Assembly: GCA_965223265.1 (NCBI GenBank)
Contig: OZ244999.1
Coordinates: forward strand, 5,952,001-6,016,000
From: Planctomycetota bacterium
GTDB lineage: Bacteria > Planctomycetota > UBA8108 > SXIK01
Direction: 5' to 3'
DNA length: 64,000 nt
This document shows positions 17,814 through 47,055 of this stretch, piece by piece. The position numbers and the translations under genes are program-made. The notes beneath the pieces are model-generated. The model worked only from the letters and a program-made list of their open reading frames with translations, made no database searches and was not told the DNA's origin. Position 1 is the first letter of the stretch. Every line of letters starts with the position of its first letter.

Positions 17814-17983
17814 CGGCGCTCCTCGGTACCTGCCGACCACCAAGGATATTCTATCGACCCGTTCTCCGCTCGCCCTGATCTTTCGGTCTGCAGCTGCCCC
17901 AGCCGACGCAGTCTCCTTGAGCTCTCGACGCTCGGGGGCGTAGAATCGATGGTGAGTACGAAGTGCGACGAGCGGAGACGCCA

Positions 17984-28938: not shown

Positions 28939-29272
28939 CACGGTCCGCCGCATCCAGGGGCACGAGCTATGAGCCGCGGCGGCGGCTCAAACCCGCGCTT
29001 TGCTTGCCGAGACAAGTACAGGCGCATTGAGCTTCTCCGGAGCTACAAGGAGTTCCTTGGAGAAAACCGGTTCGCGTTGAGGAGTTTCTGCGAGGGACTT
29101 CGAGAGCTGCAGGTCCATGAACCTGGAGTGGCCGCGATCGAGGCTGGGGCCGCCGAGCCGGGTTCGGACGACAGAAGATTTTGCTACGGCGTAAGAGGGC
29201 AACGGACTTTGCAGGCCCTACTCCGTGCGTGATAGAATCCCAGCAGAACTCATCCCGTATACCAGAGGGAGA

Positions 29273-30685
29273 ATGAACGTCTGCGCCGCCAGCTCCATTG
29301 ACCGCCGCGAGTTTCTACGAGCAGGACTGACCGGATTCACGACCCTCAGCCTTGCCGGGCTGTACCGACTCCGCGCGCAGGAGTCGGCGTCGCGTCTGGC
29401 GACCCAACCGAGCGAGCCGACAGCCGTGATCCTGGTTTGGCTGCGTGGCGGCGCGAGTCACTTGGAGACGTTCGATCCGAAACCGGAGGCTCCACGCGAG
29501 ATTCGAGGACCTTACCGGGCGATCAACACGAACGTCTCCGGCATCCGAATTTGCGAATTGCTGCCCCGCCTCGCCAAGATTGCGGACAAATATGCCCTGC
29601 TGCGTTCGATGGCGCACAACGCGGGCGGTCACCCGGCCGGATCGCTTCAGATCTTGTCAGGAGATGCGGACTCTGCTGACAAACCGCGCCCAGTGTATCC
29701 TGACTGGATGACTGTCGCGAATTCCCTGCGCCCTAGTTCCCGCACGGGTCTACCCAACTACGTAGCGGTGAACCCGGTCGACCGGTACGACAACTTCGTC
29801 ATCGCCGGGCCTGCCTATCTTGGTCCTGCGTACGCACCATTCAAGGTAGTCGGAGATCCGAATCGACCGCACTTCGAGATTCCCAACATTGCGCTCAAGG
29901 ACGAGGCGCGCGCGCTCCGGTTGCGCAGGCGCGTCAGCCTGAGATCGAGTCTCGACCGGCTCGCTCGCGACATCGAACAAGTCGAAGACACCGCTCGCAT
30001 GAAGGCGTTCGACGAGTACGAGGCGCAGGCGCTGGCCTTACTAACCAGCCGCGAGGCTCGCGAGGCATTCGATTTGACGCGAGAGCCCGAGGGTCTGCGC
30101 GAGCGGTATGGACGAAACCAATGGGGACAGCAATGTCTCATGGCACGGCGCCTCGTCGAAGCGGGTGTAGATATCGTCGCCACCGAGTTCGACGGACCCC
30201 TCTGCGGTAGGGTTGCCAACTGGGATGACCATGCAGTCAACCACCATGTCTTCGAGGCGATAAGGTACCGGGCACCGTTTTTCGATCAGGCAGTCTCCGC
30301 ACTGATTGAAGATATCTACGAGCGCGGTCTAGATCGGCGGGTCCTCGTCGTCGTCACCGGAGAGTTCGGCCGCACGCCCCGCATCTCATACGTCGCGAGC
30401 AGCGGAGGGGGTGAAGCGAGTCGTCCAAAGGGAGTGGTTCAGCCGGGTCGAGATCATTGGCCTCGTGCGAATTCGATGCTCTTCGCCGGTGGGGGCATTC
30501 GGACCGGTCAGGTGATCGGCGCCACAGATCCGCTCGGTGAAGATCCCGTCGAGCACCGGGTTGGACCGCACGATTTCTTGGCGACAATCTATCGACACCT
30601 GGGTGTCGACTTCAATCACGTCGCGCTGAGCAATCTCGCGGGGCGGCCAATCCCCATAGTCCACGAGGGGAAGCCAATATTGTAG
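29273..30685 (+). CDS. DUF1501 family protein (second subfamily, Tat-exported)
   Basis: DRREFL, GGASHLETFDPKP, CLMARRLVEAGV, WDDH, GEFGRTP, GRDHWP. Confidence 0.92.
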   Translation: MNVCAASSIDRREFLRAGLTGFTTLSLAGLYRLRAQESASRLATQPSEPTAVILVWLRGGASHLETFDPKPEAPREIRGPYRAINTNVSGIRICELLPRLAKIADKYALLRSMAHNAGGHPAGSLQILSGDADSADKPRPVYPDWMTVANSLRPSSRTGLPNYVAVNPVDRYDNFVIAGPAYLGPAYAPFKVVGDPNRPHFEIPNIALKDEARALRLRRRVSLRSSLDRLARDIEQVEDTARMKAFDEYEAQALALLTSREAREAFDLTREPEGLRERYGRNQWGQQCLMARRLVEAGVDIVATEFDGPLCGRVANWDDHAVNHHVFEAIRYRAPFFDQAVSALIEDIYERGLDRRVLVVVTGEFGRTPRISYVASSGGGEASRPKGVVQPGRDHWPRANSMLFAGGGIRTGQVIGATDPLGEDPVEHRVGPHDFLATIYRHLGVDFNHVALSNLAGRPIPIVHEGKPIL

Positions 30686-30764: not shown

Positions 30765-31043
30765 AATCCGACGCGCGCAGCGAGCGCTACGATGAGCCCT
30801 CAGAAGAGCGTGCTGGGGACGACCTTTCGACGTGCACAGCCCGCCCTGCCTTCTCGTCATGAGGCGAAAACTGCAAAAGGCACGTGAAGCTCAACCAGAC
30901 AAGTCGTGAACGCGCTCAGAGGGGAAGGTCGAACAGAACAACGCGACGAAAGAATAGCGCTGATGATCCAACCGGGACGAGACTTCGCTGGCTGCGACGG
31001 TATCATCGACTGCACTGATAGAATCTCGAGCTGGGAGTCGCCG

Positions 31044-32453
31044 ATGCGCTTCGTTTCGTGTTCCTTCACACTCGCGCTGTTCCTGCCGTGGGCCGGCGAT
31101 CTACGTTCGGCCCCGGTCACCATCGCCCCAGCCGCGCCGCGACTCGCCGTGGCGTGGAACGGTCCGCTGGGAAGTTCTGGGCTTCTCGCGAGCATGACGA
31201 CCGAGTCGCCCTGGGAGTTCGTCACGGCTCCTCTCGAGATCGGCCGCAATGCGGTTCTTAGCTTCGCGCGTGACCGTCTCTACGCGGTCAGTCGTCCAGC
31301 CGGCACAATTACGATCGTCCGGCCTGATAGCTGGAGCATCGAACGCGTGCACTCTCTCGGAGAGGGGAGCGAGCCCCTGGACATCGCCGTGGTCAGCGCC
31401 GAGAAGGCCTACGTGACGCGCGCCACCGCCAACCACCTCTTACGACTCAATCTGGTTTCTGGCGCGAGCGAAGACGTCGTGGATCTCTCAGCGTTCGCCG
31501 ATCGCGACGGCGTGGCGGATCTTGGCCGGATGATCCTGCATGAGGGCCGCCTGTTTGTGCAGATCCGGCGGATCAATTTCGACGAGCCCGGCGTCTTCGC
31601 GCCGCCGGCCTACCTGGCGGTCATCGACGTCGCCAGTGAAACGCTGATCGACGTCGATCCGGGGACACCCGGCATCCAGGCGATCCAGCTCATGGGTACC
31701 TGGCCTAAGCTGAGGATGCAGATCGTGCCTGAGTCGCGACGTCTCTTCCTGAGCGCCACTGGCACGTCGTTCGATGCTGGCGGCATCGAGGTGATCGATC
31801 TCGACGCACTCGCATCGACGGGCCTGATGATTCAAGAGCGAGCTGGTTTCACCGGAGCGGATCTCGGCCCGTTCGTCATGGTCACCCCGGAGCGTGGCTA
31901 CCTCGTCTACACGACGGATTTCACGATCTCCTCCCACATGCAGGGCTTTTCCGAGTTAGGCGGCGTCGATCCTCTGCCCCAGGTTTACGGCGTCGTCGAC
32001 TACTTCGCCCCGGCGCTCGAGTGGAACCCGCAGACAGGCACGTTCTTTTTCCCGAGTAGCGGCAGCGGCGGCGATGGCATTCGCGTCTTCGACGTCGATA
32101 CGGACGCCCAGCTCACACGTGATCCCATCCCGACGACAGGGCCGCCGACGGATTTCCTCCTCTACACCGACACCGCAGCTCGCTTCGTGCGCGGCGACGC
32201 CAATGTCTCAGGGGAAATCGACATCAGCGATGCGATCTTCATCTTAATCTACCTCTTCGGCGGCGTCCCCGAAGTCACCTGCCTCGACGCAGCCGACGTC
32301 GACGACGTCGAAGAGGTTGATCTCAGCGACGCGATCTACCTCCTGATGTCTCTCTTCAAGAACGGGCCCGGGCCGGCGGAGCCGTTGGACTGCGGTACCG
32401 ACCCGTCCCTCGACGACCTCACGTGTACGTCGTTTTCGGCCTGCAGTGAGTGA
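31044..32453 (+). CDS. Secreted YncE-like beta-propeller protein with C-terminal dockerin-like domain
   Basis: Signal peptide after ATG 31044, PLDIAVVSAEKAYVT, propeller-like strands, FVRGDANVSGEIDISDAI...CLDAADVDD...CGTDP tail. Confidence 0.75.
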   Translation: MRFVSCSFTLALFLPWAGDLRSAPVTIAPAAPRLAVAWNGPLGSSGLLASMTTESPWEFVTAPLEIGRNAVLSFARDRLYAVSRPAGTITIVRPDSWSIERVHSLGEGSEPLDIAVVSAEKAYVTRATANHLLRLNLVSGASEDVVDLSAFADRDGVADLGRMILHEGRLFVQIRRINFDEPGVFAPPAYLAVIDVASETLIDVDPGTPGIQAIQLMGTWPKLRMQIVPESRRLFLSATGTSFDAGGIEVIDLDALASTGLMIQERAGFTGADLGPFVMVTPERGYLVYTTDFTISSHMQGFSELGGVDPLPQVYGVVDYFAPALEWNPQTGTFFFPSSGSGGDGIRVFDVDTDAQLTRDPIPTTGPPTDFLLYTDTAARFVRGDANVSGEIDISDAIFILIYLFGGVPEVTCLDAADVDDVEEVDLSDAIYLLMSLFKNGPGPAEPLDCGTDPSLDDLTCTSFSACSE

Positions 32454-32615
32454 AGTCGACGAGGCAGCCTTGGCGCATCAGCGGTCTTGATTCTCACGCC
32501 GGAACGCATGTCGTCGCCTCGCTCGCGCCTGCCGACACGATTGTGCTCAGATGCTCGGAGACGTTCGCGTAGAATGGCGGCCGAGCACTCGCCGGCTGTT
32601 TTCAGGAGACGCGAC

Positions 32616-35600
32616 GTGAAGGTTCTCGGACGACTCGACGGCAAAGCACTTCACGTTATTCTCGTCACTGTCATTTCGCTTTCGCTGCTCGCACCGGAGC
32701 GATTGCGAGCCGTCGACTGTAACGGGAACGGCAACGAAGACGCCGCCGACATCGAGAGTGACTTCAGCGCTGACTGTAATAGCAACCAGGTCCCGGACGA
32801 GTGCGACACGCGCCCTCTGACGTTCGAGACCAGCGACGAAAGCCTGGCGGTCGCGAAGTTTCCACGATTCGTCCGAAGCGCTGACCTCAACGGTGATGGC
32901 GATCTCGATCTGATCACCGGCAATCAGAGCGCCAGCGGTGCGTCGACCGTCTCCATCTTGTTGGGCGCCGGCGACGGCGCCTTTCTCGATGCGATCGACT
33001 TCGACGCCGGTCAGCGCCTCGCGAGCTTCACGCTGGCCGATATGGATCGCGACGGAGATCTCGACCTCGTCACCGCGAACGATACGTCAGCTAGGGTCCT
33101 TCTCAACGACGGCGAAGCGCAGTTCAGTGCATTCACCGCCTTGACGGTGGCAGCCTCAGCAGTCTTCGTGGCTGCGGCCGACGTCAACGATGATGGTCAC
33201 CTCGACTTGGTGACGGCGCACTCGGATGCCGACATGATCTCGGTGCGCGTCCAGAGCGGCGGCGGTGGCTTCGGCCCGCCAGCCCAATTGCCAACGGGGG
33301 ACCATCCGAATTCCGTAGCAGCGAGCGACTTCGACGCAGGCGGCGATGTCGATTTGGCCGTCTGTAACCGAAATACCGGCACGGTATCGATCCTGCCCGG
33401 ACGTGGGGACGGCACCTTTGAAGACGCCATCGAAATCGAGACCGGCACGAGTCGCCCGTTCGCTGTGCTTGCCGCGGATTTGAACGGCGATGGAAATGTG
33501 GACCTTGCCGTCGGCAGCCCCACGAGCACGGCGGTGCTCGCGGGCCAAGGCGGCCACGCGTTCAGTGAACCGCTTCGCTTCGACTACGTCGGTGCGGCGA
33601 ATTCTCTCATCAGCGACGATATCGACGACGATGGCAGCATCGATCTCATCGTCGGATTCAAAGACATCGACAAAGTAACGCTGATTCGCAACCACCTCAC
33701 GACGTCGTTCTCGTTTCGGGCCGCCGTCGAGAACCAGGCACGCATGCTGAAGTCGAGCTCCGTCGCCGCAGGCGACCTGAACGCAGATGGTGCGACAGAC
33801 CTAGCGCTGATCGCTGGAAGCAACGTCGCGATCGCTTGGAACATCGAAGGTGAGATCGGCTCGGCCCTCTTCGACGACCAAGCGTTTCTCGCTCTGGGGA
33901 ACCCCCACACCATCGCCCTCGGCGATCTCGATGGAGACGAGGATCTCGACGTCGTCACCGGCAATCATGTCGCCGGGACTAGGATCTCGGTGCTCAAGAA
34001 CCGTGGCGACGGCACATTCGCCGATATTGCGACGTATGACACGCGAGGCTTCTCGTTTTCCGTAGAAGTGGCTGACCTCGATGGCGACGGCGACCTCGAC
34101 ATCGCCTCAGCGTATCCGGAATCAAGCGCTGTCCAGATCATCAACAACGATGGTCAAGGCGTCTTCGCCGAAGGTGCCAACCAGCGGGTCGGCGGCAGAC
34201 CGCACGACGTCGCCGTCGGAGATCTCGATGGCGATCGCGATATCGATGTTATCAGCGCCAATCTTTCGAGCAACACCGTCAGCCTGCTCTTCAACCGTGG
34301 CGATGGCACATTCGAGACGTGGATCGATCTCGCTTCTGGCAGCGCGCCAGTTGCGGCGCAGCTTGCTGATCTGAATGGCGACGGGGATCTCGACATCGCG
34401 GTGGCCAACTCAGGTTCCTTCGACGTGTGGGTCTTCGCCAATCGTGGCGATGGGAGTTTTGCGCCCGGCATCCCTCATGACCTCGTCGGAGGACCGACGT
34501 TTGTGGCTGTAGGCGATCTCGATCTCGACGGCCATCTCGACGTGGTGACGGCGAACGAGTCGGCGCAGACGGTTTCGGTTCTGTGGAATCTTGGCGTCGC
34601 GGGTGAAGCCCCGAGCTTCGCGGTGCCCGTCGACATCGCGGTTGGTGCCAATCCACACTCGGTCTTAACCGCCGACCTCACCGGCAGCGGACGCCTCGAT
34701 GTCGTCACCGCGAACCAAATCCACAACACTCTTTCCGTCCTCTTCAACGACGGTGGGCGTTCGTTCGCGCCGGCGACGTCTGTTCCCGTAGGAACCCAGC
34801 CGCGCTTCGCAGCCGCCGGTGACCTAGACCTCGATGGTGACATGGATCTCATCAGCGCCAATCGTCTTTCGGAGGACATCACGGTTCTGCTCAACCGAAC
34901 TGCCGCGTCCGGCGCTGACTACCTCGAGCGCATCTGCACCGAGGCCGACTTCTACGCCATTTCAAGAAGCACATCATCCGGTCGGGTGACCAAATACATT
35001 CTGCCAGCACGTGAAGATCCCGATCTGCTCCCGACGCTTTATCAAAACGTGCGCCGCTTCAGCCTTCACGAGGACTTCCTCGCCGGCGCTTTTCCGGAGA
35101 GGTTCCCGACGCGGCCCAGCGGCGAAGAGTACGATCAGCTCGTCGGCCGACGGGCAAGCCGCGATTATTACATCGGCGTGCTGTCCAGCTGGCGCACCAC
35201 CGACGGCCTCGTCTATACCTTCACGGTCGTCGCAGATACTGGTTTCGATCCTGCTGAAGTGCTGATGCAAGACGAAATCAGCGGGGTCTACGATTCCCTG
35301 AAACAATCCTTCACGCTCGAAACGCTCGCCTACTGGCCCGACGATCAACTCGCTCGAGAACAAGCGGATAGCTGGAAGGTTCCTGACTTTCCGATCTTCC
35401 TGCCGGAGGAAAGCGGCCGCCCCGGCGTCGACTTCGAAGCCTACACGCTGGGAACTGGCTACGGACGCGTCCGTCTTTTCACCCTCGAAGAATTCGAGGC
35501 AGCGAGCGCCAGCGGCCATTTCACTTTTCAGGATATCGTCGTCGTCGATGCGGCACCGCGGGACATCGAAGGCATCGTAGCGGGCGTCGTCACCGGAGCG

Positions 35601-38048
35601 ATTCAGGGACCTCTCAGCCACGTCGCGATCCGTACGGCGCGCCGCGGCACACCGAACGCCTTTGTCGAGGGTGCACTGGAAGAGTTCGCGAAATACGCAG
35701 GCGACCTGGTTCGTCTCGACGTCACCGCTACCGGCTACTCGGTTGTTCCTGCAGAAATCGACGAAGCTGAGGAGTTCTGGAGAGAGAGCCGCCCCGATCT
35801 GCCGCAGCTCCCCGACTTCGACCCAGACTACGCCCGCCTCGATGCCCTGGCAGAGATCGATCTCAGCGGCGAGCTGAACCCAGTGGCGCGCTTCGGCGGC
35901 AAGGCAACCAACCTTGCTCGACTGCAGAGTCTCCTCACGGGAGAGTTCGTGCGCTACCGCGAGCAGGGTTTCGCGATCCCCATGCACTATTACTTGGAGT
36001 TCATGCGAACGAATCGAATCCTGGTCGAAGGCAGGGGCGAGATGACCTTTGAGCAGCGTCTCGAAGAACTGCTCGCGGCAATCGATTTCCAGAGCGACTC
36101 CGTCCTCCGCGCTGCGGCGCTCGAAGAGTTTCGCAAGACGATGCGCGAGCGCGGCGTTGTCAGCCCAGAGCTCGTCGAAAATCTCGCGCGCCGCATTGAG
36201 ACCATCTTTGGCTCGACGCAGCTAATGGTGCGTTTTCGGTCGAGCTCGAACACCGAAGACGCTCTCGAGTTCAATGGTGCCGGTCTCTACGAATCGACCT
36301 CCGTCTGCGCCGCCGATAGTCTCGATCCCGCCAGACGCGAAGGCTCACACTGCGATGTGAGCAGATCCACAGAGCGGACGATCGAACGCGCACTCGCGAA
36401 GGTCTGGGCCAGTCTGTGGACGTTCCGCGCCCACGAGGAGCGGACGTTCTTCCAGATTCCGCCAGAACGTGCAGCGATGGGACTCCTGGTGACGCGCGCG
36501 TTCTTGGATGAGAAGGCGAACGGCGTCGCGTTCACCGGCAACCCACAGAACGTACGTGACCGCCGTTACCTCATCACGGCACAGATCGGGGAAGAGAGTG
36601 TCGTCAGTCCCGCGCCAGGAACATCCGTCGAGAGAAACTTGCTCGAAGTGGTGGAAGGTGGCGAGGTGGTCCGCATCATCCGCGACCGCCGCTCGTCGCT
36701 TGTCGCAGTGGATGAAGTAGTGCTCTCCGATGAGCATCTGCGCGAGCTCGCGCGGCTCTTGTGGCACGTCGATCAGAACTTCCCACTTGAGCTCGAGGGG
36801 CATCCGCGCGAGCAAGTTCTCCTCGACTTCGAGTTCAAGATCGAACCTGACGACTCCCTCGCAGTGAAGCAGGTGCGGCCGTTTCTGATTCCAGACAGCG
36901 CACCGCCATCGCCAGACTTCGAACTTGTGGTGCCGGAGGGCACCGAGGTGTGCGGCGTCTTCTCAAAGGAGCGTGTTGGTCGCGAGCCGGGAGTCGAATA
37001 TGAAACCAAGAGCACGATCCGCCTGCTCTCCGGAACGTACCCGCTCTCAAGCTCGGCCGACAGCTTCGCGGCGGAGCTCATCGAAGAAGTGCGCTTCGGG
37101 CCTGAGCAGGCGATCGCGACGCCGGAGGCGCCGGGTCTCTTCCGCGTCGCGCGCTTGGGCGCGACGGGAGGTGAGACAACGTACCGGTTCAACTACGAAC
37201 AAAACTTCACGCTCCCGGGAGGGGAGAGCTTTGTCGTTAAGCTGTTTGGCCTGCGTTTTACTGGACGCGGAGCACTCGCTGTGGAGAAGAGTCTGGTGCT
37301 CGACGAGGACTATTTGACCTTTGGGCTCGCGATGCAGGGATTCCTTGCTGACGAGCCGGTTGTCGGGTATTCGTCGTGCTCGCACGCAGTGCTCCCGCGC
37401 TGGGAGATCGCCGTCGATTTCGGGGCGGACTCTCAAATTCGTTTGGTCGAGAGATTCTTGCCGTCCGAACTCCAGATCTCGACGGGACCCGCTAGCCTGC
37501 GGCGCGCAGAGGTTGAGCTTGAAGGCCAGGAGCAGGTGGTGAGCGACTACTGGCGCCTCGTCTACGCCGCCAGGCGCCATAACGTCGACGTCCGCTACTG
37601 GGTCGTCCTCGAGCCGGCGCTGCGCTTGCCTTCGCTCGCCGCTGCGGTCCGCGTCGTAGAGATCGCTGCACCTGGCATGACGCATCCGACAGGCACGGTA
37701 AGCCTCCTTGACGAGAGCTTCCAGCTGCTGTCACAGCAAAACATCGCCAGTTTCGTGACGCGTCAGATCCAAGAGGCGAACTTCGTGCGCGGCGACGTCG
37801 ATGTCGATGGAGAGCTCAATCTCGCCGACGCACTAGCGATCTTAGGCCATCTTTTCCAGCGTCGCGCAGCACCGACGTGCGCCAAGGCTGCGGACGTCAA
37901 CGACGACGGCCGGCTGAACGTGAGCGATGCGATCGTGGTCCTTCTGCGGCTCTTCGCTGGCGGCTCCCCCCTCGCCGAGCCGTCGAGCTGCGGCACCGAC
38001 GCGACCGCAGACGCCCTCAGCTGCGCATCCTACTCAGGATGCGAGTAG
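32616..38048 (+). CDS. Secreted FG-GAP propeller / phospho-His swivel / ATP-grasp dikinase / dockerin-like protein
   Basis: AGGAG RBS plus GTG 32616 and signal peptide; about 14 DLDGDGDLD repeats; VVTGAIQGPLSHVAIRTARRGTPN; FGGKATNL, GFAIP, RSSSNTED..FNGAGLYES, VWASLW, GVAFT, KQVRP; FVRGDVDVDGELNLAD tail. Confidence 0.88.
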   Translation: MKVLGRLDGKALHVILVTVISLSLLAPERLRAVDCNGNGNEDAADIESDFSADCNSNQVPDECDTRPLTFETSDESLAVAKFPRFVRSADLNGDGDLDLITGNQSASGASTVSILLGAGDGAFLDAIDFDAGQRLASFTLADMDRDGDLDLVTANDTSARVLLNDGEAQFSAFTALTVAASAVFVAAADVNDDGHLDLVTAHSDADMISVRVQSGGGGFGPPAQLPTGDHPNSVAASDFDAGGDVDLAVCNRNTGTVSILPGRGDGTFEDAIEIETGTSRPFAVLAADLNGDGNVDLAVGSPTSTAVLAGQGGHAFSEPLRFDYVGAANSLISDDIDDDGSIDLIVGFKDIDKVTLIRNHLTTSFSFRAAVENQARMLKSSSVAAGDLNADGATDLALIAGSNVAIAWNIEGEIGSALFDDQAFLALGNPHTIALGDLDGDEDLDVVTGNHVAGTRISVLKNRGDGTFADIATYDTRGFSFSVEVADLDGDGDLDIASAYPESSAVQIINNDGQGVFAEGANQRVGGRPHDVAVGDLDGDRDIDVISANLSSNTVSLLFNRGDGTFETWIDLASGSAPVAAQLADLNGDGDLDIAVANSGSFDVWVFANRGDGSFAPGIPHDLVGGPTFVAVGDLDLDGHLDVVTANESAQTVSVLWNLGVAGEAPSFAVPVDIAVGANPHSVLTADLTGSGRLDVVTANQIHNTLSVLFNDGGRSFAPATSVPVGTQPRFAAAGDLDLDGDMDLISANRLSEDITVLLNRTAASGADYLERICTEADFYAISRSTSSGRVTKYILPAREDPDLLPTLYQNVRRFSLHEDFLAGAFPERFPTRPSGEEYDQLVGRRASRDYYIGVLSSWRTTDGLVYTFTVVADTGFDPAEVLMQDEISGVYDSLKQSFTLETLAYWPDDQLAREQADSWKVPDFPIFLPEESGRPGVDFEAYTLGTGYGRVRLFTLEEFEAASASGHFTFQDIVVVDAAPRDIEGIVAGVVTGAIQGPLSHVAIRTARRGTPNAFVEGALEEFAKYAGDLVRLDVTATGYSVVPAEIDEAEEFWRESRPDLPQLPDFDPDYARLDALAEIDLSGELNPVARFGGKATNLARLQSLLTGEFVRYREQGFAIPMHYYLEFMRTNRILVEGRGEMTFEQRLEELLAAIDFQSDSVLRAAALEEFRKTMRERGVVSPELVENLARRIETIFGSTQLMVRFRSSSNTEDALEFNGAGLYESTSVCAADSLDPARREGSHCDVSRSTERTIERALAKVWASLWTFRAHEERTFFQIPPERAAMGLLVTRAFLDEKANGVAFTGNPQNVRDRRYLITAQIGEESVVSPAPGTSVERNLLEVVEGGEVVRIIRDRRSSLVAVDEVVLSDEHLRELARLLWHVDQNFPLELEGHPREQVLLDFEFKIEPDDSLAVKQVRPFLIPDSAPPSPDFELVVPEGTEVCGVFSKERVGREPGVEYETKSTIRLLSGTYPLSSSADSFAAELIEEVRFGPEQAIATPEAPGLFRVARLGATGGETTYRFNYEQNFTLPGGESFVVKLFGLRFTGRGALAVEKSLVLDEDYLTFGLAMQGFLADEPVVGYSSCSHAVLPRWEIAVDFGADSQIRLVERFLPSELQISTGPASLRRAEVELEGQEQVVSDYWRLVYAARRHNVDVRYWVVLEPALRLPSLAAAVRVVEIAAPGMTHPTGTVSLLDESFQLLSQQNIASFVTRQIQEANFVRGDVDVDGELNLADALAILGHLFQRRAAPTCAKAADVNDDGRLNVSDAIVVLLRLFAGGSPLAEPSSCGTDATADALSCASYSGCE

Positions 38049-38086
38049 CAGCACAAGAGGACTGACGGCCTCTCGGGAGCCGCCGA

Positions 38087-38107
38087 GAGTCCAAAGGCTT
38101 TGGACTC
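38087..38107. terminator. Hairpin between convergent genes
   Basis: GAGTCCAAA-ggc-TTTGGACTC perfect 9-bp stem; no U tract. Confidence 0.4.
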
Positions 38108-38210
38108 GTCCGGCGCGTCAAAACAAGACGGAGCGGGGCCGGGCGACTGCGCGATTCGGCAGCGGCGACCCCACTCCGCCCGGGCGATCAAAAACGTCGC
38201 AGCGAACGCC

Positions 38211-39185
38211 TCACTTCTTCTGGGCTGTCTCCACCGCCGCGCTCGCGGCGGCGTACTCTGGGTTCATCGTCCGCATCGTCTTGGTGACGCCGCCGAGTAC
38301 GACGCGCGCTTCGTCAAGAAGCGCCGCCTGAAGCTGAAAGGCGCGGTGCGCTTCTTGGGAAATGGAGCCCATGAACTCCGGGTTCGCCTGCGCCCACGCC
38401 ATCATCTCGCGCCCGTTGGCGGCAAGCTTCTCCAGCCCGGACGAAAGCGCCATGACGCTCTGCGGTATCAGCGCGACCGCCTGGTGGCTCTCCGCCAGCG
38501 AACCGAAGCCGGCGAGAATCTTCTGCTTTTGCTCCGCACTCAAGGCTCCTGCTTCTGTTTGCGCGGCGCTCCATGATGCCTTGAGCTCACCCAGACGCGC
38601 AGCGACGCGGATCGGGCACGTCTTCCCGCCAGCCGCCGCCTCTTTGGCGCAGCTCTTCGACTTGCCTCCTGCCGCTACAGCAGTCTTGGTCTCCTTGGCA
38701 CACTGCTTCGCGGCGCAGCAGCCCTCGTCGGCGCCGCAGCAGGCGCCGGCCGCGTAGCTCGCGAGCTGGTGGAGATCACCGATGAGCTTCGTGCGAGCCT
38801 CTTTCAGCTTGAGGCCTTCGGCGCGTGCCGCGGCGTCGAGCGCCTTCTTGGCCTCCGCGCTCTCGAGCGGACAATGCTTGGCGTTTTCCTGCGCGCAGCT
38901 GACGACCGTGGCAAGAGAGTCGCGCACGGTGCCGAGAGTCGAACCGAGGCGCGATCCGACCGGGCACTCTTTCGCTACCGAAGCGATGCGCTGCTTCTGC
39001 TGCTCATTCAGCGGTTTCGCGTCTTTGGTCGCCGCCTTCCAGCTGGCAAGAAGCGACGGGATGCTCGCCTCAGAAGCAGCTGCGCCGGCGTCCTTGGCAG
39101 GTCCGGCGACGACGGAAACGGCGGCGAAACAAAAGGGAAGAGCGACGGCGAAGAGAGCGAATCGACGAAACGTTCTTGTCGACAT
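38211..39185 (-). CDS. Secreted Ala/Cys-rich helical hypothetical protein with internal duplication
   Basis: GAGGAA RBS, signal peptide MSTRTFRRFALFAVAL..., 10 Cys in the mature part (CP x3, CC x2), repeated LxASWxAA...LxxxQKQxI. Confidence 0.75.
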   Translation of the reverse strand: MSTRTFRRFALFAVALPFCFAAVSVVAGPAKDAGAAASEASIPSLLASWKAATKDAKPLNEQQKQRIASVAKECPVGSRLGSTLGTVRDSLATVVSCAQENAKHCPLESAEAKKALDAAARAEGLKLKEARTKLIGDLHQLASYAAGACCGADEGCCAAKQCAKETKTAVAAGGKSKSCAKEAAAGGKTCPIRVAARLGELKASWSAAQTEAGALSAEQKQKILAGFGSLAESHQAVALIPQSVMALSSGLEKLAANGREMMAWAQANPEFMGSISQEAHRAFQLQAALLDEARVVLGGVTKTMRTMNPEYAAASAAVETAQKK

Positions 39186-40123: not shown

Positions 40124-40263
40124 GCCGGAAATCCAGTGAAGGCGCGAGATTCCGGAGAATCGGCCAGATTCTCGGTCCTGAGAGAGCGACCGGATGCGGA
40201 TGAGCGATGCATGACGGCGATCTTCCTCGCCGGAGCTCGTCCCCGCCAACAAGGAGTCCCGAG

Positions 40264-42894
40264 ATGCCGAAGTCTCACCGCCCCCATCGCGGCCATATCG
40301 CCGCCGCAAACTCGCGCGCCTCGATTTGTGGTCTGGCACTGATCGCCGGCGCCGTCGTGCTCACCCCCGCGGCACTACGATCGCAGAGCGCGCGCTTCGA
40401 GCGCGGCGACGCCAACGCCGACACCGCGATCGACATCAGCGACCCCATCAACACACTGGCTTACCTCTTTTCGGAAGACGTCGATAGCGTTCCATGTGAA
40501 GACGCCGCCGACGCTAACGACAGCGGCGACATCGACCTTTCCGATGCGATCTTTACCCTCAACTTCCTCTTCGTGGCCGGAGCCGAGCCGCCCGCGCCCT
40601 ATGAGGTGTGCGGCGCCGATCCAACAGACGACAACCTCAGCTGCGCCGAGTTTGCGCCGTGCCCGCCGCCCACGATCGACGCGTTCGTCGTCAACTCGAC
40701 GGCCGACCTCGTCGACGCGAGGCCGGGCGACGGCACCTGCGACACGGGCAATCTCATCGCGCTCGGCGAAGAGATCGTACCCGAGTGCACCCTCCGCGCT
40801 GCGCTCGACGAGGCCAACGCGCTCGAAGGCACGAACGAGATCGAGTTCCACAAGGCGCTGACACCCGACGAAAACGGCGGCATAAGATTCACCCCGAAGG
40901 AGCAACTCTCGATCACTGACCCGCTGATTCTCGACGGCTACACAGCGAGCGGGTACGACACAGAGAGTCCCGCGCAGAACCCAGTGGTTCACCTTTACGG
41001 TGCGTTTGGCGTTACCGGCGTTTCGGGGCTGCTGATCTCGCCAGACGCGCGTGGCACGATCGTGCGCGGAGTCGCGATTCATGGTTTCCCTCGCCACGGC
41101 ATGTACATCTTGGCAGACGATGTCATCGTTCAAGGCTGCCACATCGGTTTGCGCGACGGAGCCATCGTCGACGGCAACATCATCGACGGGATCTTCGTGG
41201 ATGGCGCGACCCGATTGGCCATCGGCATGTCGATCGCCAATGACGGTGCGCTTCTCGGCCGGCCGAACGTCATCTCCGGCAACGGCGCTTTTGGACTCAG
41301 AATGAACGAAGGCGGCAGCGTGGTCGTCGGTAATCTCATTGGCGTGGAGGTGTCGGGGCGAGCCGCGGAGAGCGTTGGCAGCGCGACCGGCAATCGCGAC
41401 GGAGTCTACCTGAGCGACGACAATTTCAGCCAGACGCTCGTCAGTCACAACGTGATCTCGGGAAACCTCCAGCAGGGAGTGGAAATCGAGGGCGCACTCG
41501 GCCACAAAATCGTCAACAACTACATCGGCACTTCGATCGATGGAGATGCAGGGCTGGGTGGGCTCGGAAACGGTTGCCACGGAGTGTACATCTTCGAAAG
41601 TAGTGAGCTGGAGATTTCCGGCAATGTCGTTTCGGGGAACGGATGCGGCGGAATCTCCATCGATCGAGCGGCAAACACCGAGGTCGCAGGCAACCGCATC
41701 GGCGTCACCGCGGACGGAGCTTCTGTTCTCGCCAACGATCACTACGGTATTTACGTTTTCTCGAGAAGCGGAGCCTACATAATCCGCGACAACGTGATCG
41801 GTGGGAACGGTGCCACCGGTCTCCTTTTGGAAGCGGCGGAGGTGCAGGTGACCGGCAATTGGATTGGCACAAACGACGCGGGAGCCAACCTCGGCAACCA
41901 GGGAAGCGGCATCGAGTTTCTAACCACCGAAGGCCAAATCCTGCGCGGTGGCCGGATCGGCGGACCGGAGCCTGACGACGGCAACATCATAGGTTTCAAC
42001 GCACAAAGCGGCATCGCTCTGACCGCCGACGTCGAGACTGTGCAGATCTTCGGCAACCACATCGGCACCGACGCAAGCGGCCGCGACCTCGGAAACGGCG
42101 AGCACGGGATCATCCTCGGCGGCAACGCCCACACGCTAGGGAGCGCCGACGCGCCCAATGTCATCGGGTTCAACGACGGCGATGGCGTCCACGTTCGCGG
42201 CGACCGCCACCGAATCATCGGCAACTACATCGGCACGAACGACCGCGCCGAAGACCTCGGCAACGACGGCGACGGGATCGAACTCGCAACGAGACCTCTC
42301 AACGGCGTCGGCAGCAGCGGCAACGTCATCGGTGCGGCTCTCTCCACGCCGGAGGAGCTCGTAGCCGAGCAGGGAAACACGATCGCCTACAACGCCGGAC
42401 AGGGGATCGAGCTCGCAGCGTCGATCCCCATACTCGCCGAGGTCAAAGAGAACTGCCTGCGTGCCAACTCTATCTACGCCAACGGCTCGATCGGCATCGA
42501 TCTCGCTCCGATCGGCCTGACCGCAAACGACCCCGATGATGCTGACACCGGTACCAACGGCGGGCAAAACACCCCCGTTCTCGATCCCGCGCCGTTTTGG
42601 AACGAGACTGGCGGTACACTGTTCATCCACTTCACCGTGCCATCCGCCCCAACGGAATCCAGCTATCCTCTGCACGTCGACTTCTATCTCGCCGACGCCG
42701 ATGCTGAGGAAGGGAAGACCTACATTGGCACGGCGATGTACGAGGAACGCGACGCCGGCTCGCAAGTCACCACGCAGCTCGAAGCACCGCCGGAACTCGA
42801 AGTGAACAGCCGCCTCGTTGCCACGGCCACCGACTCGGCAGGCAGCGGCAACACCAGCGAGTTCAGCGCCTCAATCGCCGTAGCGTCACGTTGA
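40264..42894 (+). CDS. Secreted dockerin-like / CSLREA / right-handed beta-helix protein
   Basis: AAGGAG RBS, signal, FERGDANADTAIDISD, VVNSTAD..DGTC..CTLRAAL, many GNxIG/NVISGN repeats, GNTSEFS end motif. Confidence 0.85.
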   Translation: MPKSHRPHRGHIAAANSRASICGLALIAGAVVLTPAALRSQSARFERGDANADTAIDISDPINTLAYLFSEDVDSVPCEDAADANDSGDIDLSDAIFTLNFLFVAGAEPPAPYEVCGADPTDDNLSCAEFAPCPPPTIDAFVVNSTADLVDARPGDGTCDTGNLIALGEEIVPECTLRAALDEANALEGTNEIEFHKALTPDENGGIRFTPKEQLSITDPLILDGYTASGYDTESPAQNPVVHLYGAFGVTGVSGLLISPDARGTIVRGVAIHGFPRHGMYILADDVIVQGCHIGLRDGAIVDGNIIDGIFVDGATRLAIGMSIANDGALLGRPNVISGNGAFGLRMNEGGSVVVGNLIGVEVSGRAAESVGSATGNRDGVYLSDDNFSQTLVSHNVISGNLQQGVEIEGALGHKIVNNYIGTSIDGDAGLGGLGNGCHGVYIFESSELEISGNVVSGNGCGGISIDRAANTEVAGNRIGVTADGASVLANDHYGIYVFSRSGAYIIRDNVIGGNGATGLLLEAAEVQVTGNWIGTNDAGANLGNQGSGIEFLTTEGQILRGGRIGGPEPDDGNIIGFNAQSGIALTADVETVQIFGNHIGTDASGRDLGNGEHGIILGGNAHTLGSADAPNVIGFNDGDGVHVRGDRHRIIGNYIGTNDRAEDLGNDGDGIELATRPLNGVGSSGNVIGAALSTPEELVAEQGNTIAYNAGQGIELAASIPILAEVKENCLRANSIYANGSIGIDLAPIGLTANDPDDADTGTNGGQNTPVLDPAPFWNETGGTLFIHFTVPSAPTESSYPLHVDFYLADADAEEGKTYIGTAMYEERDAGSQVTTQLEAPPELEVNSRLVATATDSAGSGNTSEFSASIAVASR

Positions 42895-43371: not shown

Positions 43372-46300
43372 ATGATCCAGAGCGATTCTGACCATCCAAG
43401 AAGACCGCGCCGCGGCGAACATCCGGCCGCTGCGAAAACGCCACCACCCGGGCATGGCGGCGGCGAAGAGGCTGAAGAGACGGGCCTCTTTGGACTGCCG
43501 GAGCGTATCTCACCCAACACACTCCTCGCAGATCGCTACCGCGTCGCCGAACTCCTCGGCAAGGGCGGCATGGGAGAAGTCTTTCGCGGCCACGACCAAC
43601 GGCTCGACCGCGACGTGGCGATCAAGGTTTTGCCCGAGCACCGCGCCTTGGACCCCGACGCGCTCAAGCGCTTCGAACGCGAGATCAAGGCAGTCGCAGC
43701 GCTGTCTCATCCCCACGTCATGGCGATCCACGACATCGGGGTGCATGAAAAAATCCCCTTCGCGGTGATGGAGCTGCTGAAGGGCGAGACGCTGCGCATT
43801 CTGCTGACAGGGCACCCACTTGCCGTAGATCAAGTACGCCGCATCGGTCAAGGAGTCGCTGCGGGGCTCGCTGCGGCGCACGCGCGGGAAATCATCCACC
43901 GTGACATCAAGCCCGAAAACGTCATGGTGAACCTTGAAGGTCACGTCAAGATCCTGGACTTTGGTCTTGCACGACGCACGCTCCCAAGAACGACGCCTGG
44001 CGACAGTTCGACAGCTCGCTTGACACTCTCCGGCGTCACTCCCGGCACAGTCCCGTACATGTCGCCGGAACAAGTCACGGGCGAATCGCTGACTGCAGCC
44101 ACGGACATCTTCTCGTTCGGTGTCGTCCTTTACGAAACCGCCACCGGACGTAACCCTTACCGCGCTGACACTCACTTCGAAACCTTCGAGCGCATCGTCT
44201 GGCAGCGACCAGAGCCACCGTCGCATGCTGCTCCCGAGCTCCCCGCGGCGCTCGACGCACTGATTATGCGTATGCTCGAGCGCAACCCCGTGCAGCGCCC
44301 TGGCGCGCAGGAAATCGAGGCGGCTCTGTCGAAATCCGGCGGCGGCACACCGCCTTCCACCTTCTCCGTCAGGCAAGAGACCGCGCCGCGACACACGGTT
44401 GGTCGGCAGACGCAACTCGACGAGCTCCGCACAAGACTCCAGAACGCCGCCGACCGGCGCGGATCGATGCTCTGCATCGCGGGTGAAGCAGGCATCGGCA
44501 AGACGACGCTCGTCGAAGACTTCCTCCACGAACTCGAAAGTGCTGGCCATCACGGCACCGTGGTTGCACGCGGGCGTTGTTCTGAACGCCTAGCGGGCTC
44601 CGACGGCTATCTCCCGTTTCTCGAGGCGCTTGAATCTCTGCTCAAACACGATCGACACGCTGGCGTTCATCGTCTCCTGCAACAGTACGCACCCGCATGG
44701 TATGTACAAATCGCCACGAGCTCCGGCGGCGAGTCTCTGGGCGACGCTGCACTCGCAGACGCGCGTTCCGCCTCGCAGGAGAGGATGAAACGCGAGCTCG
44801 CCGTCTTCCTCGGCGAGCTCGGACGCCTTGGCCCCGTCGTGCTCTTTCTCGACGACATCCACTGGGTCGATGTGTCGACAGCAGACCTCCTGGCTTACCT
44901 GGGCTCAAAGTGCGGCAATCTGCGCCTCCTTCTCGTCGTCAGTTTTCGCCCCACTGAGTTGTCGTTAAGTCGCAGCCCGTTCGTCGACGCAAAACTCGAA
45001 CTCCAAGGGCGCGGTCTGTGTAAGGAGATCGCACTCGAATTCCTGGGCCGCGAGGACATCCGAACGTATCTCGATCTCGAGTTCCCCGCGCATGCCTTCC
45101 CCGAAGAATTCGCCGGACTCATTCACGCGCGCACTGAAGGCAGCCCTCTGTTCATGGTCGACCTGCTGCGCTACTTGAAGGACGAAGGCGTCATCGCGCA
45201 GCAAGACGGACGCTGGGCTCTGGCGCGCAGCGTGCCCGAGATGCAGCGGGATCTGCCGGAGTCGGTGCGCAGCATGATCCAGAAAAAAATCGGCCAACTC
45301 AGTGACTCCGAGCGGCAGATCCTCGTCGCTGCGAGCGTTCAAGGCTACGAGTTTCACGCCGCCGTGATCGCCCGAGCACTGGACCGCGACGAAGCTGAAG
45401 TCGAAGAGTGCCTGGAACACCTCGACCGCGTTCACTATCTCGTGCGCAACCTCGAGGAGGAAGAGTTCCCCGACCGCACGCTGACCGTCAAATACACCTT
45501 TGTTCACGTCCTCTACCAGAACGCGCTCTACGACACACTCACGCCAGCACGAAAAGCGAAGCTCGCTGCGTCGGTGGCTCAAGTTCTCGAGGCGACACGC
45601 GAACACGAGCAGGCGGACATCGCTCTGGAGTTGGCCCTCCTTTGGGAAGTCGCGCGCGACTTTGACAAAGCGTCAGACTTTTTTCTTAAAGCGGCGGAAA
45701 ACGACGCCAAGCTCTACGCCAACCACGAAGCGATCGCGCTGGCTGGACGAGCGATGCAGACCGCGGAGAAGCTCTCAGAGAGCGGCGGACGACGCGAACG
45801 CGTTCTGCGCGTCGCCTTCTTCATGGCTCAGCTCTATCAAACGCTCGGCAAGTATCATGACGGCATTGCGAGCTTCGAGCTCGCCGAGCGCGTCGCGCAA
45901 GAGCTCGAGCGCGTCGATGCGGTCGTCGAAGCGGTGTGCGGCATGGCCAACTGCGCCTTCTATCTCAAGCAGATGGGAGACGCACAGAAGCATGGCGCAC
46001 GGGCCCTCGAATTGGCGCGACGACACAATCTGCAGCTCGGCGTTGCCCAGGCCGAGTCGGTGATCGCCCTGGAGCGGCTGTGCATGGGCGAGTTCGAGAC
46101 GGCGGAGCGCTTCTATGATCGTGCCATCCCCGTGCTGAAGGCCGAAGGGCGGCCGATTCAAGCCATGGACGCGGTCAGCTTCCGACTACTGCTCCACGCC
46201 TGGCGTCTCGAGTATCGGGAGCTCGATGCCAAGGCGAGCTGGTGGGTGGAAATGGCACGCGAGTTCGGTGCCAACATCGTGCAAATGCACTTTTGGCGCA

Positions 46301-47055
46301 GCATGGCGCTCGGCAATCAAGGTCGGCTTTCCGAGGCGCTCGAAACAGTTCGTGAAGGACGCCGCTTGGCAGAGCTCAACGACGACCCGTACCACATCAC
46401 GCGCCTACCCAACATCGAAGGCTGGCTCCATCGAGAGCTTCAAGACTTCGACACTGCCGTTGAGCTCGACAGCCAAAGTCTCGCACTCGGCATGGAGCTT
46501 GGATTCGAAGAGGCGGCCGCGAACGCCCATGTCAACTTGGGACACAACTACACGCTTCTGGGTGAACATGAGCGCGCCCACGAACAGCTGCACGCGGCGG
46601 AGCGTCTCTTCAATCAAGACCCGTGGTTTCGATGGCGCTACAACATCCGCTTGCAAGCGGAGTTTGCCAGCCACTGGATCGCGCGCGGCGACCTCACGGT
46701 GGCGACGTCGCACGCGAAAAAATCTCTGGAGCTGGCCCAGAAGTCTTTGTCGCGAAAGCACATCGCTTGGGCGTACAAACTGCTTGCGGATATTGCAGCG
46801 CTGGAGGACCGCGTCGACGAGGCTGCACATCACTTCGACCAGGCACTCAAGACCTTCGATGGCTATCCTTGTCCGACGATCGAGTGGAAGGTGCTCAAGG
46901 CGATGCTGCACTTGGCTCGTCAGCGGCGAGACAACGACGCGATCGATCAACTCGAGCGCCGGGCGCGCCAGCTCACGGAGTCGCTCGCCAGGCAGATCGG
47001 CGACGACAAGTTGCGCCAGGTGTTTCTGCAGTCGCGGGCGATTCGGGAACTTTAG
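43372..47055 (+). CDS. Ser/Thr kinase - STAND-like AAA ATPase - TPR protein (cytoplasmic)
   Basis: LGKGGMGEV, HRDIKPEN, DFGLA, GTVPYMSPE; Walker A GEAGIGKT, Walker B LFLDDIHW, TEGSPLF; helical TPR-like C-terminus; no TM. Confidence 0.92.
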   Translation: MIQSDSDHPRRPRRGEHPAAAKTPPPGHGGGEEAEETGLFGLPERISPNTLLADRYRVAELLGKGGMGEVFRGHDQRLDRDVAIKVLPEHRALDPDALKRFEREIKAVAALSHPHVMAIHDIGVHEKIPFAVMELLKGETLRILLTGHPLAVDQVRRIGQGVAAGLAAAHAREIIHRDIKPENVMVNLEGHVKILDFGLARRTLPRTTPGDSSTARLTLSGVTPGTVPYMSPEQVTGESLTAATDIFSFGVVLYETATGRNPYRADTHFETFERIVWQRPEPPSHAAPELPAALDALIMRMLERNPVQRPGAQEIEAALSKSGGGTPPSTFSVRQETAPRHTVGRQTQLDELRTRLQNAADRRGSMLCIAGEAGIGKTTLVEDFLHELESAGHHGTVVARGRCSERLAGSDGYLPFLEALESLLKHDRHAGVHRLLQQYAPAWYVQIATSSGGESLGDAALADARSASQERMKRELAVFLGELGRLGPVVLFLDDIHWVDVSTADLLAYLGSKCGNLRLLLVVSFRPTELSLSRSPFVDAKLELQGRGLCKEIALEFLGREDIRTYLDLEFPAHAFPEEFAGLIHARTEGSPLFMVDLLRYLKDEGVIAQQDGRWALARSVPEMQRDLPESVRSMIQKKIGQLSDSERQILVAASVQGYEFHAAVIARALDRDEAEVEECLEHLDRVHYLVRNLEEEEFPDRTLTVKYTFVHVLYQNALYDTLTPARKAKLAASVAQVLEATREHEQADIALELALLWEVARDFDKASDFFLKAAENDAKLYANHEAIALAGRAMQTAEKLSESGGRRERVLRVAFFMAQLYQTLGKYHDGIASFELAERVAQELERVDAVVEAVCGMANCAFYLKQMGDAQKHGARALELARRHNLQLGVAQAESVIALERLCMGEFETAERFYDRAIPVLKAEGRPIQAMDAVSFRLLLHAWRLEYRELDAKASWWVEMAREFGANIVQMHFWRSMALGNQGRLSEALETVREGRRLAELNDDPYHITRLPNIEGWLHRELQDFDTAVELDSQSLALGMELGFEEAAANAHVNLGHNYTLLGEHERAHEQLHAAERLFNQDPWFRWRYNIRLQAEFASHWIARGDLTVATSHAKKSLELAQKSLSRKHIAWAYKLLADIAALEDRVDEAAHHFDQALKTFDGYPCPTIEWKVLKAMLHLARQRRDNDAIDQLERRARQLTESLARQIGDDKLRQVFLQSRAIREL

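Follow-up and report, generated by a model that had tools for sequence, protein, structure and literature searches.

Introduction

To our knowledge, all characterised histidine-swivel dikinases (PPDK, PEP synthase or PEPS, rifampin phosphotransferase or RPH, and the glucan, water dikinases GWD and PWD) work where ATP is abundant. Here we describe a gene whose product combines the features of this superfamily with those of an exported protein. The gene occupies positions 32616-38048 (+ strand) of a 64,000-nt stretch of a planctomycete genome (assembly GCA_965223265.1, contig OZ244999.1, positions 5,952,001 to 6,016,000); this whole stretch is called the window below. The swivel-dikinase chemistry itself is already known, and the family to which the gene belongs appears, from its sequences, to be a new, exported branch of these enzymes. 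A large and consistently exported family is puzzling because ATP is not expected outside the cytoplasm.

The closest described enzymes differ in the order of their parts. In RPH, the ATP-grasp domain is followed by the rifampin-binding domain and then by the His domain. For StGWD1, the sections of PMC13553574 that deal with this enzyme give the layout CBM45 - CBM45 - all-helical central domain (residues 483-926) - His domain (931-1050) - ATP domain (1069-1387), with 20 helices in the 444 aa of the central domain. According to a 2026 review, no high-resolution structure of GWD or PWD existed.

In the protein described here, a signal peptide, a Cys/Asp motif and 14 FG-GAP blades precede a family-specific N-domain, a His domain, an ATP-grasp domain, an all-beta C-domain and a dockerin-like Cys tail. 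With moderate confidence, and from sequences and models, we favour the reading that it is an exported, catalytically active swivel dikinase, whose N-domain holds the acceptor, whose propellers target it and whose dockerin tethers it. New here are the 35-copy family, its cassette structure, the contrast between the GWD1_pHisD and PEP-utilizers matches, the cysteine evidence, the minimal core and the multi-phylum range with a cultured host. Literature searches gave no description of this family; in two preprints the word 'dikinase' stood, in the passages returned, in another context.

One intact gene

A single open frame spans 32487..38048 (+), and GC is even across the region (0.60-0.66). The GTG start at 32616 lies 7 nt downstream of AGGAGA (32603-32608), and the product has 1,810 aa. 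The features are as follows.

32603..32608, + strand: Shine-Dalgarno-like AGGAGA, 7 nt ahead of the GTG start
32616..38048, + strand: whole coding sequence, 1,810 aa and stop (open reading frame and translation)
32616..32711, + strand: predicted signal peptide, residues 1-32, with a basic n-region, a 16-aa hydrophobic core and an LRA/VD cleavage-like site (read from the sequence)
32712..32813, + strand: Cys/Asp-rich motif DCNGNG..D..D...DCN.N..PDEC, residues 33-66, with C35, C54 and C63 (paralog conservation)
32814..34940, + strand: 14 FG-GAP blades with Dx[DN]xDG-type Ca loops, residues 67-775, the variable module (Pfam and loop spacing)
34941..35423, + strand: N-domain, residues 776-936, alpha/beta and family-specific, with invariant H818, R846 and R849; candidate acceptor/phosphotransfer site (AlphaFold2 model, alignments)
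35424..35795, + strand: phosphohistidine swivel domain, residues 937-1060 (VIA-align, Foldseek, GWD1_pHisD at 14.8 bits)
35619..35621, + strand: codon of H1002, the predicted phospho-acceptor and first residue of a short helix (AlphaFold2 model and invariance)
35883..36890, + strand: PPDK_N ATP-grasp, residues 1090-1425, with a family-specific C1231...C1246 loop (Pfam, motifs, Cys pair)
36897..37760, + strand: C-domain, residues 1428-1715, all-beta, apparently two barrel-like halves, accessory since missing from the minimal forms (AlphaFold2 model, pLDDT 94.7)
37761..38045, + strand: dockerin-like double EF-hand and four-Cys tail with C1755, C1792, C1803 and C1809 (Pfam, family profile)

The first-pass annotation of this DNA had listed a signal peptide, about 14 FG-GAP/VCBS repeats, a phospho-His swivel motif, an ATP-grasp domain at about 35890-36880, an unknown domain of ~300 aa and a dockerin-like tail, and it had seen no PEP/pyruvate TIM barrel. 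Its coordinates were all correct on recheck, and each of these elements was seen again in the analyses described below, the signal peptide as a prediction.

Given that a paralog-rich genome could invite misassembly and that localisation is predicted here, one may ask if a propeller gene and a dikinase gene were wrongly joined in the assembly, or if the gene encodes a cytoplasmic enzyme with a mispredicted N-terminus. We consider either case extremely improbable. Positions 32000-36446 were covered with 0 differences by an independently assembled 8,102-nt contig found in two public runs; this contig alone extends from the signal peptide through residue 1277, within the ATP-grasp domain. Positions 36419-38600 were covered, again with 0 differences, by a second independent contig, and the two contigs join at a 32-nt word inside the conserved ATP-grasp. 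The four runs with matching contigs come from one study, which may be the source sample, and the contig support is therefore weakly independent. Stronger support comes from the same architecture in 33 full-length paralogs and in many homologues in other genomes. A cytoplasmic enzyme is also at odds with the ribosome-binding site and signal peptide, the cysteine pattern, and the Ca-binding FG-GAP and dockerin modules, all of which fit export. Thus, the sequence at 32616-38048 is one intact gene and not a chimera at its domain junctions, an artefact that the first-pass annotation had named as a risk.

The dikinase module

The Pfam family PPDK_N (PF01326) matched residues 1092-1423 (window 35889-36884) with 76.6 bits against a cut-off of 27. 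The motifs of this ATP-grasp domain (GGK, RxRSSSNxED, GAG, W/FASL, ANGVAFT, DxExK and KQxRP) align with those of the PEP synthase of the same genome. We found that K1096, R1206, R1208, S1209, E1214, D1215, D1404, E1406, K1408, K1418, Q1419 and R1421 are invariant in 46 diverse members of the family; we take the ATP-grasp motif residues to bind nucleotide and Mg, as in the PPDK literature. Also invariant in those 46 members are H1002, R1010 and, in the N-domain, H818 and R849. The same residues are invariant in 35/35 paralogs too, save D1404, E1406 and K1408, which fell outside that check. A search of the PDB with the family profile retrieved PEP synthase 8a8e at 9.8e-10, while the single protein sequence gave a weak PEPS match only. 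The profile search of the PDB returned no His-domain match and no GWD entry, the latter in agreement with the 2026 review. In Pfam and NCBIfam scans of the protein, no PEP/pyruvate barrel family was seen at E<=1.

The motif GPLSHVAIRTARRGTPN puts the histidine of the swivel domain at residue 1002 (codon 35619), and in the AlphaFold2 model a helix (model residues 227-235) starts at H1002. The placement is the same as that of H992 of StGWD1, which starts a short helix in the published description (PMC13553574, in the sections on this enzyme). VIA-align of the His domain found rifampin phosphotransferase 5hv1_A at Z 11.5 (rmsd 2.3 A, 100 residues, 27% identity), followed by a pyruvate kinase PEP-utiliser-like C-domain (Z 10.8), PTS enzyme I 2wqd (Z 10.4), maize PPDK 1vbg (Z 8.2) and an isolated PPDK carrier domain (Z 8.0). 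Foldseek matched the same domain to RPH/PPDK at E 7e-5 to 6e-4 with probability 1.0. These matches confirm that, as modelled, residues ~937-1060 fold as a swivel phosphohistidine domain. H1002 is invariant in 35/35 paralogs, in 70/70 rows of the short-form alignment and in 46/46 diverse members; loss of this histidine among homologues, which the first-pass annotation had singled out as telling against its proposal, was seen in none of the three alignments.

By sequence and model, then, the protein has the features of the histidine-swivel dikinase superfamily: the PPDK_N ATP-grasp, the conserved nucleotide/Mg motifs and the swivel His domain with a histidine at the helix start. Still, the largest part of the protein is an adhesion-type propeller and activity is so far predicted only, so that it might be a non-catalytic adhesin, with the dikinase-like part a pseudoenzyme that serves as a scaffold or senses nucleotides. 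This is very unlikely in view of the invariance of the catalytic His and of the nucleotide/Mg motif residues across 35 paralogs and 46-70 distant homologues; moreover, conservation within the protein is highest in the enzyme module, which is all that the minimal forms consist of.

Comparison with described dikinases

Comparison with GWD1 and PWD (EC 2.7.9.4/2.7.9.5) was made by published description and Pfam model. Alike are the position of the His domain immediately N-terminal of the PPDK_N ATP-grasp (here residues 937-1060 and 1090-1425), the catalytic His at the opening of a short exposed helix, and a family-specific domain joined directly upstream of the His domain. Unlike GWD, which is plastidial, the present protein is predicted to be exported, and it has an extra all-beta C-domain, propellers and a dockerin.

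We observed that the Pfam model GWD1_pHisD (PF22973), when run on the whole genome, gave 27 matches, all of them inside paralog His domains (27/35 paralogs), and zero matches in the canonical PEPS, PPDK or EI genes. The best paralog scored 24.4 bits compared to the cut-off of 27, and every match was sub-threshold. Conversely, the PEP-utilizers model gave six strong matches to ordinary enzymes (71-103 bits) and reached one paralog at a noise-level 12 bits. Among the 46 diverse members, GWD1_pHisD matched 15 and PEP-utilizers none. What ties the family to GWD is the domain order together with the type of the His domain, though each individual score is sub-threshold. Relatives in bacteria whose His domain is of the GWD type are also relevant to how the starch dikinases of plants arose.

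Membership in GWD itself was ruled out by the absence of CBM45/CBM20 and by a 160-aa alpha/beta pre-His domain in place of the 20-helix central domain; in the Pfam scan of the protein no carbohydrate-binding module, CBM45 and CBM20 included, appeared at E<=1. The GWD-like architecture suggested in the first-pass annotation thus stands for the order of the His and ATP-grasp domains and for the GWD1_pHisD-type matches, while it fails for the carbohydrate-binding modules and for the domain ahead of the His domain. The sequences partly support a protein that works like a GWD/RPH-type dikinase yet is not a GWD.

RPH of Listeria monocytogenes (PDB 5HV1/5FBT) is the best structural match of the His domain, and it shares the three-site logic of an ATP-grasp, a swivel His and a separate acceptor-binding domain. 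It differs in being cytoplasmic and in having a C-terminal His domain (chain residues 753-867). Identity with RPH was rejected: NCBIfam NF041857 scored 18.4 bits against a cut-off of 999, and the His domain here lies ahead of the ATP-grasp. PEPS and PPDK have a homologous ATP-grasp with the same motifs and the same swivel-domain fold; on the other hand, the present protein is without the TIM barrel, has the reverse order of His and ATP-grasp domains, and carries a Cys-pair loop in its ATP-grasp. The NCBIfam PEPS equivalog gave 38.9 bits compared to a cut-off of 598 and, with no barrel and a reversed order, identity with PEPS/PPDK was likewise rejected.

Evidence for export

The N-terminus reads MKVLGRLDGK-ALHVILVTVISLSLLA-PERLRA/VDCNGNG, where the slash marks the cleavage-like site; n-, h- and c-regions are visible, and a strong ribosome-binding site stands ahead of the start. 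The layout is the same in the paralogs: all 33 long ones have a hydrophobic stretch directly ahead of the DCNxN motif, and the two short ones start with hydrophobic leaders. The survey of homologues for signal peptides, which had been proposed along with the export claim, points the same way. It covered 172 homologues that start with M and whose His motif lies well within the sequence. A hydrophobic 11-mer at the N-terminus (Kyte-Doolittle mean >=2.0) was present in 144 of them, compared to 3-19/172 for internal control windows of the same proteins. Many of the 28 homologues that failed this test are truncated gene calls or fall just below the threshold.

The cysteines give a second line of evidence. 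There are 13 in 1,810 aa, 12 of which are conserved in 33-35/35 paralogs. The C1231/C1246 loop is family-specific and missing from the PEP synthase of the genome; the pair occurs in 35/35 paralogs and 69/69 short forms. For C1446 and C1588, both residues are present in 47 of the 69 short forms and both are absent in 19, with a single one in 3. Such a pattern is that of disulfide-bonded extracytoplasmic proteins, and we infer disulfides here from the conservation. Taken together, the family-wide signal peptides, the co-varying cysteines, the Ca-binding propellers and the dockerin support Sec-dependent export, as far as it can be predicted. Periplasmic Lig E-type DNA ligases are a precedent for exported ATP-dependent enzymes.

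A constant enzyme module on variable propellers

The propeller region (residues 67-775) matched Pfam FG-GAP_3 at 2.3e-83 over 12 stretches and FG-GAP at 4.9e-32. Between residues 90 and 744, Ca-loop motifs recur with a spacing of 47-53 aa; 13 were found by regular expression and the 14th, DLDGDRDID at about residue 537, was read from the sequence. These are the ~50-aa repeats with Dx[DN]xDG Ca loops of FG-GAP (integrin-alpha-like) beta-propellers, and the 14 blades probably form two 7-bladed propellers. In all long paralogs, the mature N-terminus opens with the conserved double motif DCNGNGxxDxxD...DCNxNxxPDEC, which we take to resemble Ca-binding thrombospondin type 3-like repeats. The cysteines of this Cys/Asp-rich motif are kept in 33-34/35 paralogs and its mean pairwise identity is 0.56; residues 33-66 had no Pfam match.

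PF01326 matches 38 places in the 9.18-Mb genome. BLAST of residues 820-1725 against the genome found 33 copies of full length, with frames of 1,794-1,917 aa and 45-64% identity, as well as two short ones of 1,074 and 1,098 aa and a broken one. The 35 intact frames total 189,156 nt, or 2.06% of the genome. The broken or fragmentary copy, at C1:8069380-8072029, consists of adjacent minus-strand frames of 462 and 384 aa that align with portions of the enzyme half at 43% identity over 113 aa and 27% over 216 aa, with a dockerin match at 8071484-8071645.

Mean pairwise identity among the paralogs was highest in the ATP-grasp (0.62) and the His domain (0.58), lower in the N-domain (0.47) and the C-domain (0.40), and lowest in the propellers (0.31); by these sequence comparisons the enzyme module is the best-conserved part of the protein. 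In three tandem groups (at 4.62-4.64 Mb, 2.31-2.32 Mb and 8.27 Mb), pairs of genes share 3.08-3.11 kb of 3' sequence at 97-98.5% DNA identity, while the 2.4 kb at the 5' side are just 46-52% identical. Identity changes at residues 792-826, precisely at the junction of the final propeller blade and the N-domain. Two routes could lead to this pattern: gene conversion that homogenises the enzyme module, or recombination of the module onto old propellers that had already diverged; under either route the propeller would be the variable specificity part and the dikinase the constant effector part. One enzyme module reused in this cassette-like way on diverged propellers amounts to a natural specificity library. 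The gene in the window lies outside such pairs, its closest paralog being 64% identical over the enzyme half.

C-domain and dockerin-like tail

Residues 1425-1725, which include the ~300-aa domain left without a name in the first-pass annotation, were modelled with pLDDT 94.7 as an all-beta fold of ~25 strands. R1613, Y1645, Y1650, H1655 and N1656 of the C-domain are invariant among the paralogs. Foldseek gave no match for the C-domain at E<=1e-3. Among named relatives, VIA-align offered generic 8-stranded barrels only (avidins, OmpA-like proteins, AttH 2ich and pericyclases, Z<=7.5), and none was accepted.

Dockerin_1 (PF00404) matched residues 1726-1775 with 25.9 bits, above its cut-off of 22.9, and the family profile retrieves solved dockerins from the PDB at E 1e-4 to 1e-5. 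The cysteines of the four-Cys tail are kept in 34-35/35 paralogs. In the genome there are at least 109 dockerin matches (150 scored of 481 first-look candidates) and three cohesin-like matches above the cut-off. When the dockerin tail was modelled in complex with one of the genome's cohesin-like domains, the score was 0.13 against a mark of 0.34, which is evidence neither way. Clostridial-type cellulosomal enzymes likewise have a C-terminal double EF-hand type I dockerin, and this genome too has dockerins and cohesin-like matches; the cargo here, however, would be a kinase-type enzyme instead of a hydrolase, a four-Cys tail comes after the dockerin, and the cohesin partner is only a candidate. 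Two cohesin-like proteins carry dockerin-like modules at both ends (e.g. C1:9018731-9020668 (-) and C1:2392477-2393733 (-)), which at the sequence level suggests a network of cohesins and dockerins in this planctomycete.

Distribution and minimal forms

In a phmmer scan of 1.84 billion cluster representatives, 2,557 matches had E<=1e-3 and 803 had E<=1e-30. The homologues cluster in length near 1,800, 1,400, 1,070 and 700 aa, and their database names are 'hypothetical', 'PEP/pyruvate-binding domain-containing' or 'FG-GAP-like repeat-containing'; other N-terminal fusions among them are LTD, DUF1566 and BNR. Within the phylum, 19/301 sampled genomes, the present one included, match at E<=1e-30. 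Matches were found in all sampled members of its own taxonomic family (2/2) and of two sister families of the order (1/1 and 4/4). At least 567 relatives occur in species-representative genomes, with record titles that name Planctomycetota, Verrucomicrobiales, Kiritimatiellae, Omnitrophota, Myxococcales, Nannocystis, Anaeromyxobacteraceae, Sumerlaeia and Anaerolineae. Judged by these sequence matches, the family spans Planctomycetota, Verrucomicrobiota, Omnitrophota, Myxococcota and Chloroflexota.

The complete minimal forms of ~700 aa have lipoprotein-type leaders, contain the N-domain, the His domain and the ATP-grasp, and end right after KQxRPF. For example, cultured Paraliomyxa miuraensis SMH-27-4 has two copies, of 748 and 744 aa, with lipoprotein leaders and an end just after the ATP-grasp; these homologues in a cultured organism make the question of activity directly testable. 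Since the minimal forms are complete without the C-domain, the N-domain, His domain and ATP-grasp form the predicted functional core and the C-domain is accessory; for the same reason we place the putative acceptor site mainly in the N-domain. In a second, more distant clade (L097-L101; G303, G023, G081, G157), proteins of ~770-820 aa start with a signal peptide and have EF-hand pairs, a variant of the N-domain, PPDK_N and a His motif that reads PLSHVNLRA. This clade appears to be exported as well, so export would be a trait of the wider superfamily.

Residues 776-1090 were modelled with AlphaFold2 from 69 natural short-form homologues, at pLDDT 92.5; the first half of the model (residues 776-936) is the N-domain, a mixed alpha/beta domain of ~160 aa. 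In VIA-align of this two-domain model, no PDB match of the N-domain was seen, 2okf at Z 4.8 coming closest; the list of hits was taken up by the His domain, which is why we claim no new fold for the N-domain. ESM Atlas searches with the N-domain and the C-domain stayed below scores of 0.8, and their sole use was the lead to PF22973, from the N-domain search.

Myxococcota and Omnitrophota, where the family is present, include predators. The protein could be a trans-acting effector or toxin, with propellers that bind prey or competitors and a dikinase that phosphorylates a target, or drains ATP to AMP + 2 Pi, in the target cytoplasm. Such a role would remove the ATP problem, the target cytoplasm being rich in ATP, and the combination of a constant enzyme, variable binding modules and many paralogs resembles polymorphic weapon families. 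We nevertheless think it rather unlikely. No translocation domain or secretion-system marker was recognised in the Pfam and NCBIfam scans, no immunity-like neighbour is conserved, and the gene upstream is unique in the genome. Furthermore, the dockerin tail and the lipoprotein anchors fit retention on the producer better than release, and the conserved disulfide-type cysteines are ill-suited to a reducing cytoplasm.

Proposed mechanism

In the reading that we favour, that of an exported and catalytically active dikinase, the protein would be Sec-exported, disulfide-stabilised and calcium-binding, with the variable double FG-GAP propeller recognising a target and the constant part acting as the dikinase. 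A nucleoside triphosphate, presumably ATP, would bind the ATP-grasp; its beta-phosphate would pass to H1002 on the swivel domain, and the gamma-phosphate would leave as Pi. The His domain would next swing away and deliver the phosphate to an acceptor, for which the family-specific N-domain (H818, R846, R849) would be the main binding site. Long forms may have help from the C-terminal beta-domain (R1613, H1655, N1656), and the dockerin-like tail may anchor the enzyme at the cell surface. With 35 paralogs, one chemistry would reach many different extracytoplasmic targets. The sequences and models show the architecture, the folds, the invariance of the catalytic residues, the export signals and the cassette-like arrangement of the paralogs, whereas catalysis, ATP as the donor, the site and nature of the acceptor and display at the surface are deduced from them.

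Several points weigh against this reading. Neither the periplasm nor the surroundings of bacterial cells are known to have a free ATP pool. There is no linked gene that could supply a donor, the neighbours of the paralogs being conserved only via dockerin, FG-GAP, DUF1501 and PSD1-type families. Export was deduced from sequence features (a leader read by eye, and hydropathy), the disulfides from cysteine conservation and not from a structure, and the acceptor site from invariant residues and from the domains retained in the minimal forms. The protein in the window reached only 14.8 bits (E 0.12) with GWD1_pHisD, and all matches to that model are below the curated cut-off. Finally, the single tandem pair checked in the related genome G200 was without a near-identical 3' module.

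Alternatively, the protein might be extracytoplasmic but not an ATP-consuming polymer kinase. It could use another donor (another NTP, PPi or polyphosphate), act as a water dikinase that takes phosphate off dissolved nucleotides, or run the reaction in reverse on phosphorylated substrates, PPDK-type chemistry being reversible. This proposal shares the export evidence given above, and the Pfam scan found no acceptor-binding domain of a known type such as a CBM. Yet all nucleotide/Mg-binding residues of PEPS/PPDK-type ATP-grasps are conserved, which points to a nucleotide; simpler phosphatases exist for scavenging, and the invariant N-domain residues argue for a specific acceptor site. We regard it as fairly improbable.

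Going back to the exported dikinase, its boldest form would be a surface-displayed 'phospho-tagging' arsenal, in which a GWD-type engine on more than 30 propeller specificities phosphorylates insoluble polymers or foreign cell surfaces with scavenged extracellular nucleotides. We put this forward as a doubtful but consequential idea: if true, a dikinase would for the first time be placed outside the cytoplasm, and starch phosphorylation as a means of loosening recalcitrant substrates would have its first counterpart in bacteria. More generally, an active family would mean either that usable nucleotide is present outside these cells or that the chemistry differs from the textbook, and either outcome would change the understanding of extracellular polymer processing or of microbial conflict.

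Genomic neighbourhood

The gene lies among exported or envelope genes of a kind usual in planctomycetes. They encode DUF1501 and PSD1/PSCyt2 proteins, a protein with FG-GAP repeats, a beta-helix protein whose N-terminus bears a dockerin-like module, and a TetR regulator. Directly upstream (window 30906-32453, +) is a gene for a 515-aa protein that ends in the same C-terminal dockerin-like module and Cys tail as the dikinase-like protein; the remainder of the 515-aa protein matched no Pfam family and is without paralogs in the genome. At 17963-21758 (+), a gene for a PSCyt2/PSD1 protein precedes one for a DUF1501 protein, and a second DUF1501 gene, at 29225-30685 (+), lies two genes upstream of the dikinase-like gene. 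DUF1501 or PSD1-type genes occur within 8 kb of 6-7/35 paralogs, which may be chance given the abundance of these families. On the downstream side, the gene at 40207-42894 (+) encodes an 895-aa right-handed beta-helix (NosD-like) protein with the dockerin-like and Cys module at the N-terminus, not the C-terminus, and the one at 43372-47055 (+) encodes a 1,227-aa protein in which a Ser/Thr protein kinase is joined to an AAA_16 ATPase and TPR repeats.

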